A DNA stretch of 64,000 nt from Candidatus Sysuimicrobiota bacterium (GTDB lineage: Bacteria; Sysuimicrobiota; Sysuimicrobiia; Sysuimicrobiales; Sysuimicrobiaceae). This document shows, one piece after another, positions 49,501 through 55,500 of the stretch (position 1 is its first letter; each line of letters begins with the position of its first letter). Location: positions 1 through 64,000 of the forward strand of contig PSLI01000005.1 of the NCBI GenBank assembly GCA_040289515.1, given 5' to 3'. Position numbers: made by a program.

Positions 49501-52500
49501 CACCGCGGCCCTGGTGGCCCTGGGCTGCGTCATGGCCCGGCAGTGCCACAACAACACCTGCCCCGTGGGCATCGCCACCCAGCGGGAGGACCTGCGCAGC
49601 AAGTTCCCGGGTACGCCCGAGCGGGTGGAGGCGTACTTCCGGGCCCTGGCGGAGGACGTGCGGCGACAGCTGGCCCAGATGGGTGCGCGCTCCCTGGAGG
49701 AGATCATCGGGCGCGTGGACCTCCTCCGGGTTCGGGACGACGTGCGCCTGAACCGCGCCGAGCAGCTGGACCTGTCCGAGCTTTTACAGCCCGCACACGG
49801 CCAGACCCGAGGCAGCTTTGCGGCCCCCCTGCCCGTGGAGGGTCCGTTGAACCGGCTGCTGGTGGAGCAGTACCGGCAGACCATCGAGCACGGCGTGCCC
49901 GCGGAGGGACACCACCCCATCACGAACCGGGACCGCACCGTGGGCGCCACCCTGGCGGGCGAGATCGCGCAGCGGTGGGGTGACGCGGGCCTGCCGGAGG
50001 GCACCCTCCGCCTCACCTTCGAGGGGGAAGCCGGCCAGAGCTTCGGGGCCTTCTGCATGCCGGGCATGCAGCTGCGCCTGGTGGGCGAGGCCAACGACTA
50101 CGCGGGCAAGGGGATGTCGGGGGGTGAGATCGTCCTGGTGCCGCCGCCTCCGTTGCACCGGGACAGCTGGCGGCACGTCATCGTGGGCAACACGGTGCTG
50201 TACGGAGCCACCGGCGGGGTGTTCTTCGCCGCCGGCCGGGCTGGGGAGCGGTTCGCAGTGCGCAACAGCGGCGCGGTGGCGGTGGTGGAGGGCGCGGGAG
50301 ACCACTGCTGCGAGTACATGACCGGCGGTGTGGTGGTGGTCCTGGGTCCCGTGGGCCGCAACGTCGGTGCGGGCATGACGGGCGGGCGCGCCTACGTGCT
50401 GGACGAGGCGGGCGTGCTGGATCGCCAGATCAACGCCGACTCTGTACAGACCGCGCCCCTGTCCGAGCCGGAGGCGGAAGAGCTGCGGGCGCTTTTGGTG
50501 GGCTACCACGAGGCCACGGGAAGCCACCGGGCCCAGCTGCTCCTGCGGCGGTGGCCGCGCGTGGTGCACCAGTTCCGGGCGGTGCGGCCGCGCTCCGCGG
50601 CGGAAGTCCCCGTGCAGGTGCCCGCCCGAAGCACCGGTGCAGCCCGCCGGGCCCGTTGACACGGGCCCGCGGGCGGGTTACCCTCAGCTCGAAACCTGAA
50701 GCCGCGCCAGGACGCCGGCCCGACAGCCGGCGTCTCCTTTTTCGGAGGCCAAGACGCCCCGACCGGCCGGGCGCTGCTCTTTTTTCAAACAGGCAAGGGG
50801 GTCCAGCGTGAGCAAGCGGATCGTGATCGCCGAGGACGAGGCGGTGGTCCGCATGGGGGTGCGGGCCATCCTGGAGGCGGCGGGCTACCGGGTGGCAGGA
50901 GAGGCGGCCAACGGCGAGGAGTGCCTGGAGCTGGTGCGCTCCTGCGACCCCGACCTCGTGATCCTGGACGTGCGCATGTCCCCGCCGGACGGCATCGAGG
51001 TGGCCCGTCGGCTGCGGGAGACGTCCCCACGGCCGGTGGTGTTCCTCACCGCCTTCAGCGACCGGCAGCTGCTGGAGGCCGCCGCGGAAGCCGGAGCCTA
51101 CGGATACGTGGTAAAGCCCGTGGTGGGCGCAGAGCTGCTGGCGGCCGTGGAGCTGGCCTGGGCCCGCTGGCGCGACCTGCAGGAGGCCCGGGAGGCCCTG
51201 CAGACCCGCAAGCTGGTGGAGCGGGCCAAGGGCGTGCTGATGCGGCGGCTGGGGCTCGGGGAGGAGGAAGCGTACCGCCTGCTGCAGCGCCGCAGCCGTA
51301 ACCTGCGGCGCCCCATGCGGGAGGTGGCGCAGGCGGTCCTGGTGCAGGAGGAGATCGTCTCGCAGTCCTCCAAGCCAAAGCCGAAACCCCGTTGACAACC
51401 GCCCGCGGGGTTGGTATAAGAACGGTAGGCTGGGCCGGGACGCCCGTGGGTGCGGACGTCCCGGCCCTTTGTGTTTCGCAGACACTTCGGGCCAGGACGC
51501 CCTCCCGGGCGTCCTGTGCTTTTCCGGGAGGGAGCGATGCGTAGACTCGGCATCCTGGTTGGTGCTTTTGCCCTGCTGGCCTGCGCCCCCGCCGCCTGGG
51601 CCGCAGACCCCGCGGGGCCGCTACCCTGAAGGCCAGCCCGTCCGCACCGGTGAACTTCACCTGGACCTTGGTGGCGGCTTTCCTGGTGTTCTTCATGCAG
51701 GCGGGGTTCGCCCTCTTGGGCGCGGGTCTTATTCGCTCCAAGAACACCGTCAACTACCTCACCAAGAGCTACATGGACTTCAGCATCGCGGCCCTCAGCT
51801 ACTGGGCCTTCGGCTTCGCCCTCATGTTCGGCGGCAGCAAGCTGGCTAGCGGCCTGGAGTACGGGAACGCCTGGGTGGGGCTTTCGGGCTTCTTCCTGAG
51901 CGGCGCGGCCTACGACGTTACCACGACCCTGTATTGGTTCTTCCAGATGGTGTTCGCGGCCACCGCGGCCACCATCGTGGCGGGCGCCGTGGCGGAGCGC
52001 ACCAAGATCCAGGCATACCTGGCGTACAGCTTCATCGTGAGCGCCCTCATCTACCCGATCTACGGGCACTGGGTGTGGGGCGGGGGCTGGCTGGCCAACC
52101 TCCCCTTCGGGGCGGGGGCGAAGGACTTCGCGGGTTCCGGCGTGGTGCACACGGTGGGCGGTCTGCTGGGCCTGATGGGTGCCGCCATGGTGGGGCCCCG
52201 AATCGGCAAGTTCAACCCCGACGGAACCCCCAACCCCATCCCCGGCCACAACATGGTGTACGTGGTCACGGGCACCTTCATCCTGTTCTTCGGGTGGTTC
52301 GGCTTCAACCCGGGTAGCACCCTGGCCGCCACGGACCTGCGCATCTCCATCATCGCGGTGAACACCTTCCTGGCCGGTGCGGCGGGCGGCGTGGTGGCTT
52401 TGTACGCCACCCTGGCCCGCACGGGCAAGGCCGACATCGCCATGGCCTGCAACGGCGCCCTGGCGGGCCTGGTGGGCATCACGGCCCCCTGCGCCTACGT

Positions 52501-55500
52501 GGCCCCGTGGGCCGCGGTGGTGATCGGCGGCGTGGCGGCCCTGGTCATGATGTGGAGCCTCGGGTTTGTGGAGCGGGTGCTGAAGGTGGACGACCCCGTG
52601 GGCGCGGTATCCGTGCACGCCGCGGGTGGCCTGTGGGGGCTGCTGGCGGTGGGGATCTTCGCGGACGGTACTTACCAGAACGTCCGCGGCCTCATCGTGG
52701 GCGAGGTGGGCCAGCTGATCGCACAGCTGATCAGCATGGGTGCGGTGACCGTGTGGACCCTCGCCACCGGGTACCTGATGTTCGCCCTGCTCCGGGCCAC
52801 CATCGGGCTGCGGGCCTCCCGGGAGGAGGAGTTGCAGGGCCTGGACATCCCCGAGCACGGAGTGCCCGCCTACGTCCTGGAGCCCGCGCCCGGGCTGTAG
52901 GAGGAGAGGTTTGCACGGCCACACTTTCCGGAAAGGAGGTCGGAGGTCCATGGAAGCTTGGCTCGCACTGGGATCCTTCGTGCTGCTGTTCTGCGCGTGG
53001 GTGGTGCTGCCCAGCCGGCTTTTGCGGCGCGCGCGGCGGGCCGAGGAGGAGGTTTGACAGCCGGCCCGGGGTTGTGCTATAAGAGCTGCGAACCCAATCG
53101 GGAATCCTGCGGGCCGCGACGCCCCTGCGCCATCGGCGCCGGGGCGTCTTTGCGTTTCGGGGAAAGACTTCTGAGGAGCGGAGGTGCAGACAGATGGTTC
53201 CAAGGACGCCCAGCGACGTGCTGGCCCTGATCAAGGAGAAGGAGATCCAGATGGTGGACCTGCGGTTCACCGACCTGCCGGGGACCTGGCAGCACACCTC
53301 CGTCCCCGCCTCCCAGGTAGACCTGTCCACCTTCACCAAGGGCATCGGGTTCGACGGCAGCAGCATCCGGGGCTTCCAGGCCATCCAGGAGAGCGACATG
53401 CTGCTGGTGCCAGACCCCAGCACCGCCTTCGTGGATCCCTTCCTGGAGATCCCCACTCTGGTCATGATCTGCGACGTGGTGGACCCGGAGACCCGGGCCC
53501 CCTACTCCCGTGACCCCCGGTACGTGGCCCGCAAGGCGGAGGCGTACCTGAAGGAAACGGGGATCGCGGACCTGAGCTTCTGGGGCCCGGAGATCGAGTT
53601 CTTCATCTTCGACCACGTCACCTACGAGGTGGCGCCCCACCGGATGGGCTACTCCATCGACAGCCGGGAGGGCATCTGGAACAGCGGCAACGGGGAAGGG
53701 AAGAATCTGGGCTACAAGATCCGGCCCAAGGAGGGGTACTTCCCCACCCCGCCCACCGACACCTTCCAGGACATCCGCAGCGAGGCGGCCCTCCTCCTGG
53801 AACGGATCGGCATCCCCGTGGAGATGCACCACCACGAGGTGGCCACCGCCGGCCAGGCGGAGGTGGACATGGAGCGGGACAGCCTGGTGCGCATGGCGGA
53901 CAAGGTCATGGTGTACAAGTACGTGATGCGGAACGTGGCCCGGCGCCACGGTTGCACCGTGACCTTTATGCCCAAACCCCTCTTCGGCGACAACGGGAAC
54001 GGCATGCACACCCACCAGAGCCTGTGGAAGGACGGCCGCAACCTGTTTTACGCGGAGGGCGGCTACGCGGAGCTCAGCCCTCTCGCCCTCCACTACGTGG
54101 CCGGTCTGCTCACCCACGTGGACAGCTTGCTGGGCTTCACCAGCCCCACCACCAACTCCTACAAGCGGCTGGTTCCCCACTACGAGGCGCCCGTGAACGT
54201 GGCCTTCAGCAAGCGCAACCGCAGCGCCTGCGTGCGCATCCCCATGTACTATTCCGGTCCGGAATCTGCGGCCAGCAAGCGGGTCGAGTTCCGGCCTCCG
54301 GATCCCAGCTGCAACCCGTACCTGGCCTTCGCGGCTATGCTCATGGCAGGGCTGGACGGCGTTCGCCGGAAGCTGGACGCTTCCCCCTTCGGGTCCCTGG
54401 ACGTGAACACCTATGAGTTGCCGCCGGAGGAGGCAGCCCGGGTGAAGAGCGTGCCCGGCTCCCTGGGGGCGGTGCTGGACGCCCTGGAGGCGGACCACGA
54501 GTACCTGCTGGAGGGCGACGTGTTCACCCGGGACCTGATCGACACCTGGGTGGCGTACAAGCGGGAACGCGAGCTCCACGAGGTGAACATCCGGCCCCAC
54601 CCGTACGAGTTCTACCTGTACTTCGACGTCTGACGGCGCTTCTGGGGTCCGGGAGCACCTCCCGGGCCCCAGCGTTCACAGCCCCGCCATCTGCAGCAGC
54701 ACCCGCCAGCTGGCCTCGTCCACGGGCACCACCGACAGCCGCGGCTGACGGACCAGGGCCAAGCCCCGCAGGCGAGCTTCCGCCTTGATCTGCGCCAGGG
54801 TCACGGGCCGGGGCAGTGCACGCACGGCCCGCACGTCTACCACCACCCGGCGGCCCGCCGGATCGCGGGGGTCGGGGTAGGCTTCCCGCACTACCTCCAC
54901 GATGCCCACCGCCTGCCGCTCCCGCCCCGTGTGGTAAAACAGGGCCAGGTCCCCGCGCCGCATGGCCCGCAGGTTCCGAACCGCCTGGGGGTTGGTCACC
55001 CCGTCCCACACATCCACCCCAGCACGCACCTGGTCGTCCCAGGACCACTCCTCCGGCTCAGTCTTCAAAATCCAGTACGCCACCGCTCCCTCCGGTGCGA
55101 GGCCTGCGGCCTTCATGCTAACATGGCGGCGGTTCTCCGCACGAAGCCACGGGGAGACGTAGGTTTGTCGCTCGAGGGCCTGCTGCAGCTGACCCGGGAC
55201 TGGCCGGTGCTATCTGAGCTGCGCCGGGTGGTGCACCCACCGGCCCGCACGTGGGCCTTCGTACCGGCCTACGGGGCCAAGACCCTGCTGCTGGCGGACC
55301 TGCTGATCTGTGAGCCCAGCCGACCCGTTTTGATCCTCGTGCCGGGCCGGGAAGCGGCGGAGTCGGTGCAGGAGGATCTGAGGAGCTTTGCCCCCCGGCT
55401 GCACGAACGCGTGCGCTTCTTCCCGCCCCTGGAGGTGCTGCCGCACGACCCCTTGCCGCCAGCCCCCGAGGTGGTTGCGCAGCGGCTACGGGCGTTGGGG

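Follow-up and report, generated by a model that had tools for sequence, protein, structure and literature searches.

A predicted two-component ANTAR attenuation regulon for nitrogen assimilation genes in a Candidatus Sysuimicrobiota bacterium

How a bacterium without nitrogen PII protein controls its nitrogen assimilation genes is the question raised by a gltB-g00481-amt-glnA cluster of a Candidatus Sysuimicrobiota bacterium (GCA_040289515.1). The window analyzed comprises positions 1 to 64,000 of contig PSLI01000005.1; all coordinates refer to it and all features lie on its + strand. The source genome (G000, family f1) is 96.7% complete in 76 contigs. A search with PF00543 returned no match in it, in agreement with the initial annotation, and GlnK of a congener gave no tblastn match under E 1.9. 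A PII-fold protein of this genome is 63% identical to a congener's PG0541-type transporter-associated protein. The initial annotation had linked the absence of PII to antitermination by g00481, the ANTAR regulator of the cluster. An ANTAR-type regulator within a GS/GOGAT cluster has a precedent in NitR of the Clostridium glnA-nitR-gltAB locus.

The cluster begins with gltB, a gene call for the glutamate synthase large subunit (46256..50659), followed by g00481 (50808..51395; gene call, Pfam, alignment), an orphan REC-ANTAR protein of clade S. The ammonium transporter gene amt, delimited by gene call and orthologs, has its body at 51650..52900, or 51537..52900 with the signal-peptide part, which starts at ATG 51537 out of frame with the body; compared to orthologs, one base is missing near 51614-51620, and no indel was seen in contigs of runs X1 and X2, which derive from one sample that may be the source. 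A conserved 35-aa ORF with a single transmembrane segment and a strong RBS (52950..53057) is homologous to the N-terminus of a protein of about 400 aa in other amt clusters, and had no match in a Pfam search. The last gene is glnA (53194..54633, gene call), coding for type I glutamine synthetase. The supposed common control does not extend to gltB, which in G000 carries a ykkC-class riboswitch with overlapping terminator instead (46074..46225; terminator folding z -4.2). Its score against Rfam RF00442, 57.7 bits, is under the guanidine-I gathering threshold of 63, and it is kept in 8/14 loci scanned. Judging from gene association, it would be of the ppGpp subtype (ykkC 2a); subtypes 2a-2d are told apart by gene context and sequence (PMC6003355).

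Five elements reported in the cluster proved to be real. The 11-mer GCC-R-N-GACGCC occurs at 50706, 50748, 51434, 51491 and 53113, each time with a complementary arm and a U tract downstream, so that a hairpin of 3-4 bp with C-N-N-G-A-C hexaloop overlaps an intrinsic terminator. By folding, the g00481 leader contains element 1 (50704..50742, loop CAGGAC, C-C mismatch at the third stem pair) and element 2 (50746..50787, CAAGAC), the amt leader element 3 (51432..51476, CGGGAC, hairpin entirely within the terminator) and element 4 (51489..51523, CAGGAC), and the glnA leader element 5 alone (53111..53158, CGCGAC). Terminators 1, 3, 4 and 5 are strong (z -2.6, -3.9, -4.9 and -2.9); terminator 2 has no good fold here (z +0.6), appears decayed and is stronger in congeners. 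Hairpin and terminator are mutually exclusive, as in ANTAR targets. In four elements the terminator fold exceeds the small hairpin in stability by 10-18 kcal/mol, so a protein would have to act before the terminator closes. Candidate promoters were recognized by eye before g00481 (TTGACA-17-TACCCT, 50656..50684), amt (TTGACA-17-TG-n-TATAAG, 51392..51420, about 5 nt from element 3) and glnA (TTGACA-18-TATAAG with TG, 53054..53083), none of them listed by a strict promoter scan. In congeners TTGAC lies 43-48 nt upstream of the first g00481-leader element and 36-53 nt upstream of the first amt element, and it precedes the element by 54-61 nt in 9/9 family-f1 glnA leaders.

The sequence pattern first given for these elements matches four of them and misses element 2 (GCCAAGACGCC). 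Its matches are not enriched in the window (7 versus 3.9 +/- 1.9 in shuffled sequence, with 9/100 shuffles as high); the significance of the elements rests on position and conservation, not on count. Genome-wide, GCC[AG][ACG]GACGCC matches at 27 sites, of which 7 are accompanied by a T tract; five of these 7 are the elements described. A GGC-N6-GCC hairpin with terminator, whatever the loop, is present in 15/1136 leaders of G000 ORFs of at least 300 aa, and a C1/G4 loop in two of the 15, those of amt and glnA.

The element recurs throughout the phylum, 5' of amt, of glnA and of related genes. Among 110 distinct rows, collected with a search pattern that included stem and loop length, the hexaloop sits on a stem of at least three pairs closed by C-G (GGC/GCC stem in 108/110). 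Their outer stem pair is G-C in 63, A-U in 20, G-U in 8, C-G in 2, U-A in 1 and other in 16; this covariation score was reached by 0/500 shuffles, with rows that include non-independent kin. A search that left the loop sequence unconstrained matched in 21 of 27 further glnA upstream regions from ANTAR-positive genomes, all 21 with C1 and G4, and the same search in ANTAR-negative genomes gave 0/8. In genus g29, where ANTAR was found in 0/4 genomes, the orthologous glnA and its terminator are kept and the hexaloop is destroyed. Because elements precede amt and glnA phylum-wide, the outer pair covaries and the loop is lost from glnA leaders of the ANTAR-less genus, antitermination of nitrogen genes by an ANTAR protein, as initially annotated, is very likely.

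The canonical site is obeyed only in part. In the window, loop position 4 is G in 5/5 elements and position 1 is C in 5/5, in place of the canonical A; this C1 variant, already noticed in the initial annotation, was borne out in 80 of 85 elements from 37 genomes (A in 3). The claim that the two-hairpin rule fails holds in family f1 and not everywhere. An upstream P1 hairpin at 5-12 nt was present in 0/44 elements of family f1 and 0/12 of f2, but in 15/29 elements of f4, f5 and f7, as canonical P1-P2 with G4 and linkers of 0-15 nt. The same kinase together with an Arg172 ANTAR recurs outside the group, in a lower-GC lineage where a C1 element precedes a glutamate-synthase-like gene.

These departures from the published rule, C1 and the missing P1, could mean that another RNA-binding protein or a metabolite reads the hairpin and ANTAR genes merely travel with nitrogen genes. 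Since genus g29 keeps the glnA terminator without ANTAR, another way past the terminator must exist there. We regard such a reader as extremely unlikely, however: hexaloop size, G4 and the closing C-G fit ANTAR sites, P1-P2 forms occur in relatives, the loop decays where ANTAR was lost, and A1 forms accompany Met172 proteins (see below). At 14 nt, the core is also smaller than a known aptamer would require, and over the elements Rfam had no match at E up to 5.

Ordinary dual-hairpin control is conceivable as well, with elements 1 and 2, and 3 and 4, as P1-P2 pairs joined by long linkers. Both leaders do have two similar hexaloops, terminator 2 is weak here, and EutV binds its hairpins one after the other (PMC8934654). 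Linkers in eut, however, span 5-12 nt and a length of 14 nt already failed, whereas those considered here measure 28 and 43 nt. Moreover, a strong terminator of its own overlaps the first hairpin, so rescue must precede the making of the second. A lone hairpin is all that the leaders of glnA, of genus g2 amt and of degenerate paralogs contain, and in some of them it lies within about 6 nt of the -10 box. We therefore hold the paired arrangement to be very improbable; family f1 sites would function as single hairpins, which stand alone or form two consecutive attenuators.

Three ANTAR proteins are encoded in the genome, as previously counted. Besides g00481, the window contains a kinase-linked REC-ANTAR of clade K (41792..42361; Pfam, alignment). 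Both match REC and PF03861 above Pfam cut-offs and possess the REC Asp, Thr and Lys. The G4-contact residues Arg142/Lys149/Glu160/Tyr164 (EutV numbering) are R/K/E/Y in g00481, which also keeps Lys143, and R/K/E/F in the kinase-linked protein; both have Arg in place of Met172. The coiled coil of g00481 is 7 residues, one heptad, shorter than that of the kinase-linked protein.

It is distinctly unlikely that g00481 is the main activator, autoregulated and opening its own, amt and glnA terminators, while the kinase-linked ANTAR acts on other targets. This role would suit its place in the cluster, the two elements of its leader, the retained Tyr164 and the adjacency of its clade to amt or glnA in every examined member of genera g1 and g2. 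But glnA is preceded by the element in G009 and in most f2, f4 and f5 genomes, where clade K is present and clade S absent, and this speaks against g00481 as the switch. Hairpin and leader scans of G000 found no further elements as targets for clade K, and g00481, lying behind two terminators, would need a trigger to start. The kinase-linked ANTAR is present wherever the element was found beside glnA or amt. As it is co-encoded with a kinase bearing a PtsP-like GAF domain, and many relatives have elements without g00481, we consider it, with good confidence, the likely master antiterminator.

Element control of g00481's own gene is upheld by elements 1 and 2, and the retained RNA-binding residues lead us to favor, with some reserve, an amplifying role for this protein. 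The same circuit would also operate with g00481 as a brake, either by withdrawing phosphate from the kinase that both regulators share or by forming heterodimers of lower activity. Element-controlled orphan paralogs of f2 and f4 keep the REC phospho-site and helix 1 and have lost the equivalents of Arg142, Lys143, Lys149 and Tyr164 (8/8 compared), and the shorter coiled coil could point the same way. Yet the g00481 clade keeps the RNA-contact residues across 15 complete rows (one His at 164), and deletion of a whole heptad preserves coiled-coil register. A braking g00481 is thus a rather unlikely, though tenable, variant.

Residue 172 may account for the C1 loops, as a change in the protein matches a change in the RNA. 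EutV requires A1 and P1, a 14-nt linker lowered induction, and Met172, its essential hydrophobic plug of the hexaloop, could not be changed to Ala without abolishing binding (PMC3369931, PMC8934654); for NasR, SELEX favored A1, and binding weakened about 12-fold with a single hairpin (PMC7496416). Arg occupies position 172 in 51/52 complete rows of clades K and S and the G017 paralog. The sole Met172 is that paralog, the only Met172 ANTAR of G017, and it is preceded there by an exact copy of the GnfR consensus CAGGCAANGGCGCC; Met172 ANTARs occur with A1 sites in two genomes. Among 401 genomes of a second phylum, two have C1 leaders (before amt and before a type III GS) and each codes for one ANTAR, with Arg172, and the single clear A1 leader belongs to a genome with Met172 and Gln172 only. 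Partial exceptions are G045, G046 and G055, which have Arg172 ANTAR only and terminator-overlapping loops starting with G, U and A, with P1 loops starting with C; in G088 the P1 loop starts with A. The Arg172 proteins may share one origin, so these cases are not independent evolutionary switches. We propose that Arg172 enables the reading of C1 loops.

The presumed sensor is a cytoplasmic GAF-GAF-HisKA_2-HATPase kinase (40152..41795, Pfam), adjacent to ANTAR in six families. The best PDB matches of its residues 11-170 are 3E0Y (E 1.5e-24) and the PtsP GAFs 3CI6 (7e-22) and 3TRC (9e-21), NCBIfam places GAF1 with PtsP (E 7e-32) and NifA (3e-27), and Foldseek aligns it to 3TRC with TMt 0.89. GAF1 is thus closest to PtsP in sequence and fold, at about 30% identity, with NifA and Nlh1 GAFs scoring nearly as well. 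Invariant positions number 49/138 in GAF1 and 26/143 in GAF2. The PtsP GAF binds glutamine and 2-oxoglutarate (PMC13104625, PMC4848567); homology does not fix the ligand of the kinase, and we only slightly favor this pair for it.

The circuit as a whole is probably a two-component ANTAR attenuation regulon for nitrogen assimilation. By default, the terminator of each leader would swallow the hexaloop hairpin. Under nitrogen limitation, the kinase would sense glutamine or 2-oxoglutarate by GAF1 and phosphorylate the adjacent REC-ANTAR, whose dimer would clamp NGGC-CNNGRM-GCCN hairpins, thereby preventing terminator closure and allowing transcription of amt, glnA and g00481. As both a target gene and, by its identical REC helix-1 surface, a putative second substrate of the kinase, g00481 would then amplify the response. 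This control is not tied to PII loss, as had been suggested: amt-glnK occurs in 7/41 genomes, and because all 7 of these operons carry the element in their leader, the absence of PII appears to be incidental.

ANTAR control of nitrogen genes is already published; new here are Arg172, its association with C1 loops and the missing P1 in family f1. The parallel to Geobacter sulfurreducens GnfK/GnfR, drawn initially, holds: a kinase-activated REC-ANTAR recognizes a site with GGC-hexaloop-GCC core (CAGGCAANGGCGCC) that overlaps terminators upstream of nitrogen genes, glnK and amtB among them (PMC2995071). The present loops start with C rather than A, and element-controlled ANTAR paralogs are added; GnfK, as described there, has no sensor domain and is under sigma-54/GnfLM control, whereas this kinase has two GAFs and the promoters, by eye, are sigma-70-like. 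With Enterococcus faecalis EutW/EutV (PMC3369931, PMC8934654), the system shares REC-coiled coil-ANTAR architecture (E 7e-35 to 6WSH), a G4 hexaloop on at least three pairs overlapping a terminator, and Arg142, Lys143, Lys149, Glu160 and an aromatic 164; it differs in C1, Arg172, the missing P1 in family f1 and tandem hairpins each with its own terminator. Sites before PII, ammonium transporter and glutamate/glutamine synthase genes, up to 13 per genome, were predicted by Ramesh 2012 in Firmicutes and Deltaproteobacteria from an A1/G4 dual-hairpin model, without an assigned sensor in the text available (PMC3369931). PtsP (EI-Ntr), whose GAF is the closest characterized relative of GAF1, senses glutamine and 2-oxoglutarate without PII; here the GAF belongs to a HisKA_2 kinase whose predicted partner is an RNA-binding regulator, with the ligand suggested by homology. 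PdtaS/PdtaR (Rv3220c/Rv1626) also pairs a HisKA_2 kinase with REC-ANTAR, and among PDB entries g00481 matches Rv1626 best (E 2e-40), but Rv1626 has Met at 172, and no GAF_PdtaS domain is present in the window kinase. A true PdtaS-type pair adjoins this kinase type in loci L365 and L369.

Taken together, we tentatively suggest, as a still somewhat doubtful generalization, that Met172 reads A1, whereas Arg172 reads C1 and holds a single hairpin for antitermination without P1, and that with the PtsP-type GAF kinase this would form a phylum-wide regulon sensing glutamine/2-oxoglutarate independently of PII and NtrBC, with induced paralogs tuning it either by amplification or as sinks for phosphate. 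If true, two ANTAR systems could share a cell without cross-talk, both types being adjacent in loci L365-L369, and the puzzle of the EutV structure paper, A1 conserved despite no protein contact, would be explained. ANTAR targets have been predicted by one rule, two hairpins with A1 and G4; if Arg172 proteins read single C1 hairpins, whole regulons have been missed. For this uncultured lineage, the kinase would link nitrogen status to the expression of glnA and amt without involving PII.

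Within the nitrogen assimilation cluster formed by gltB (46256-50659), the REC-ANTAR gene g00481 (50808-51395), amt (51650-52900) and glnA (53194-54633), the sequence GCC-R-N-GACGCC occurs in five copies, at window positions 50706, 50748, 51434, 51491 and 53113. All five can be read as a small hairpin, NGGC-[C-N-N-G-A-C]-GCCN, and in each case an intrinsic terminator uses the loop and 3' arm of this hairpin as its own 5' arm. Compared with shuffles, four of the terminators fold strongly (elements 1, 3, 4 and 5; z -2.6 to -4.9), and that of element 2 is weak (z +0.6). The five elements described in the initial annotation are real and conserved; the literal pattern proposed there, GCC(A/R)(S)G(R)CGCC, matches four copies, misses one, and shows no numerical enrichment (7 matches versus 3.9 +/- 1.9 in shuffles). 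Their distinctive feature is position, not pattern count: among 1136 long-ORF leaders of the source genome, a hairpin with C at loop position 1 and G at position 4 (C1/G4) lies on a terminator only before amt and glnA. A loose hairpin-plus-terminator scan of this genome gave 407 matches, mostly coding, from which the five elements are set apart solely by their loop consensus. Sigma-70-like promoters are readable by eye ahead of elements 1, 3 and 5, none of them listed by a strict promoter scan; TTGAC is found again at corresponding distances in leaders of relatives. No Rfam family matched at any of the five elements, which very probably represent ANTAR attenuation.

The phylum comprises 94 genomes, all of a single order; tallies over 41 or 94 genomes take in the unpublished G023 and G060, on which alone no claim depends. 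In leaders picked by gene position, 85 elements were found in 37 genomes, two rows within genes having been removed beforehand, and 80 of the 85 carry C at loop position 1, the loop variant named in the initial annotation; the search pattern itself prescribed G4 and the inner stem. With the loop unconstrained, 21 of 27 further glnA upstream regions from ANTAR-positive genomes matched, all 21 with C1 and G4, in a test that was not fully blind, some loci being already present in an earlier pattern listing. Among the six non-matching regions the hairpin is visible by eye in four, one lies at a contig start and has a 4-nt loop, and one is inside an amt-glnK-glnA operon. In relatives the element also precedes gltB, orphan ANTAR paralogs, the gene of an amino-acid permease and that of a conserved protein of about 47 residues. 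The latter stands alone directly 3' of an element (L445:2033-2176 and 11 further loci of families f2 and f5), bears the motif DPMxLWxGxWxP, has no Pfam match and is absent from the source genome; it is a candidate nitrogen-starvation small protein. The same element precedes glnA and gltB in two loci (L170, L171) titled Bacillati bacterium ANGP1, a label that we take to denote CSP1-3/Sysuimicrobiota. These two were the only true elements among the matches listed in a scan of genome contigs for the C1 element, whose matching stretches (at least 121) are nearly all chance or plain terminators and give no estimate of range. Phylum-wide pattern tallies (78/94 and 84/94 genomes) were discarded as evidence of co-occurrence, since they include non-terminator noise, in ANTAR-negative genomes too.

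The small hairpin is under selection beyond that on the terminator alone. Its outer pair, over 110 rows, is G-C in 63, A-U in 20, G-U in 8, C-G in 2, U-A in 1 and other in 16. The covariation score of this pair was equalled by 0 of 500 shuffles, a statistic inflated by related genomes; slid controls score similarly but with far fewer paired cells. Row L454 of alignment A5 probably represents an unrelated riboswitch's terminator. ANTAR genes are present in 81 of 94 genomes and were found in none of genera g7 (0/8) and g29 (0/4). Genus g29 retains an orthologous glnA with its terminator, and the hexaloop hairpin is destroyed in 4/4 (L405-L408, the glnA leaders of G068-G071), the hexaloop having grown to about 12 nt. 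Further upstream, these four leaders share a conserved segment that includes a hairpin of the GUGUCC/GGGCAC type, a candidate replacement switch with no Rfam match.

The initial annotation noted a departure from the canonical two-hairpin rule. This holds for f1, the family of the source genome, and of f2, where the upstream second hairpin P1 accompanies 0/44 and 0/12 elements, respectively. It does not extend to f4, f5 and f7, where the textbook layout, with P1 (4-7 pairs, G4 hexaloop) located 0-15 nt upstream, is seen in 15 of 29 elements.

Three ANTAR proteins are encoded in the source genome, as previously noted. The protein encoded on contig C13 falls in a clade that has glutamine at EutV position 172 (Gln172) and a different REC helix 1; upstream of its gene no element was located. 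The second (41792-42361), of the kinase-linked clade K, directly follows a GAF-GAF-HisKA_2 kinase (40152-41795), an adjacency kept in six families. The third, g00481, of the orphan clade S, has no neighbouring kinase, shares helix 1 and 51% identity with the clade K protein and is one coiled-coil heptad shorter. The initial annotation regarded g00481 as the switch. Elements nevertheless persist without its ortholog in G009 and in most of f2, f4 and f5, and the kinase-clade K pair is present there; the clade K protein is therefore the likelier master regulator, and the orphan ANTARs would be feedback parts induced by it. Clade S genes are preceded by elements in 13 of 15 leaders tallied; elements were also seen in G003, and the gene of G017 is operon-internal. 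Since g00481 retains the RNA contacts, its sequence favours a role as amplifier. A further paralog type in f2 and f4 has an intact REC domain, has lost the RNA-contact residues and is preceded by a promoter-proximal single element in 8/8 cases shown; it looks like a phosphate sink. Such degenerate paralogs (L070, L071, L125, L137-L141) often lie divergent to an amino-acid permease gene that is itself under element control. Trees differ over a nesting of clade S within clade K (an open fork, 81/56, in one, outside in the other), and therefore no order of events is claimed. An NAD synthase-GAF-ANTAR fusion was also observed (L398:1483-3069, minus strand, in G096, a genome reached from a record titled Desulfacinum).

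In EutV, according to PMC8934654, G4 stacks on Tyr164, A1 is contact-free, and the loop is plugged by an essential residue, Met172; our residue numbering follows the 6WSH alignment. Arginine occupies position 172 in 51 of 52 complete rows (clades K and S and the G017 paralog). The lone Met172 protein among them, from G017, has the Geobacter GnfR consensus, with A1, ahead of it and of the adjacent amt. In metagenome loci of another lineage (56-59% GC) the same kinase occurs together with an ANTAR carrying Arg172, and a glutamate-synthase-like gene is preceded by a C1 element; a PdtaS-type pair bearing Met172 adjoins them. In a second phylum (401 genomes, phylum of G094, which was reached from a record titled Sphaerobacteraceae) nine pattern matches included three credible leaders. 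Two are C1, before amt in G436 and before type III GS in G340, each genome with a single ANTAR, Arg172; the third, in G428, is A1, its gene past the contig end, and the ANTARs there are Met172 and Gln172 only. The other six matches were rejected as coding, mobile-element or plain-terminator; among them was an A-initial match in G122, which holds both Met172 and Arg172 proteins. Residue 172 and the first loop letter thus appear to change together. Three genomes run counter to a strict code: the ANTARs of G045, G046 and G055 are Arg172 only, yet the terminator-overlapping loops there are G1, U1 and A1, and the P1 loops C1. The Arg172 proteins may also share one ancestor, which weighs against such a code as well.

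GlnK was not found in the source genome, in agreement with the reported absence of PII; weak PF00543 matches in congeners were rejected as GlnK, being PG0541-type proteins. Loss of PII, to which the initial annotation linked the switch, is not the cause of the system: among relatives, amt-glnK occurs in 7 of 41 genomes, and the element stands in 7/7 of those leaders. The first GAF domain of the kinase is more conserved than the second (49/138 versus 26/143 invariant positions, 32 sequences). Its closest named relatives by sequence are the GAF domains of PtsP (3CI6, 3TRC; NF008283, E 7e-32), with NifA-type GAFs close behind, and its fold is also nearest PtsP (TM 0.89 on 3TRC), judged by single-domain scores, Foldseek with the whole kinase being swamped by tandem-GAF proteins. 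An ESM Atlas search for the kinase gave generic GAF clusters only. According to PMC13104625 and PMC4848567, glutamine and 2-oxoglutarate both bind the PtsP GAF, the former inhibiting and the latter stimulating; by analogy, GAF1 binding such ligands would allow nitrogen sensing without PII. Just upstream of the kinase lies an IS200/IS605-like (Y1) transposase (39030-40130), flanked by repeated CCCTGTCCCC-type palindromes. The locus resembles a REP-associated transposase locus.

The gltB leader of the source genome has no hexaloop element. It carries a ykkC-class riboswitch with an ON-type terminator (46074-46225, plus strand), conserved in f1 and f2 and probably of the ppGpp subtype by gene association (PMC6003355). 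Divergent from gltB, an FMN riboswitch-like element (45733-45914, minus strand; 56.3 bits, below the gathering score) precedes ribD-ribE-ribBA-ribH.

Between amt and glnA lies a 35-residue ORF with a single TM helix (52950-53057, plus strand), conserved in 12 genomes. It occupies the place of glnK in amt-glnK operons, shows homology to the N-terminal helix of a Pfam-less protein of about 400 residues in amt-X-flotillin-glnA clusters, and is retained in G009 despite reduction of amt to a 3' remnant; its product is a possible partner of Amt or flotillin. The signal-peptide region of amt (51537-51650, plus strand) differs in frame from the body of the gene, contigs of runs X1 and X2 match the assembly across it, and amt may be impaired in this genome. 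A similar frame shift is seen in the second amt copy of G001. Near the 3' end of g00481, position 51347 is G in the window versus C in contigs of both runs.

A prediction from 2012 (PMC3369931) already placed genes for PII, ammonium transporters, glutamate synthase and glutamine synthase under ANTAR regulation, and control of nitrogen genes was demonstrated for GnfR (PMC2995071), so that the mechanism is already known; the parallel with GnfR drawn in the initial annotation is supported. Published ANTAR targets are defined by A1 and P1 (PMC3369931, PMC7496416), both of which the elements here lack; these would work like ANTAR targets and are best called a variant of them. In the literature searched, mostly outside subscription papers, neither C1 loops nor Arg172 nor an ANTAR-linked GAF kinase as nitrogen sensor were described, and a term search of the supplement text of PMC3369931, figure alignments lying outside it, found none of them either; glnA and GnfR have no mention in the passages of the ANTAR review PMC12591593. 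What is added to the known mechanism is the match between residue 172 and loop position 1, the single-hairpin sites, the putative PtsP-type sensor and the presumed feedback paralogs.
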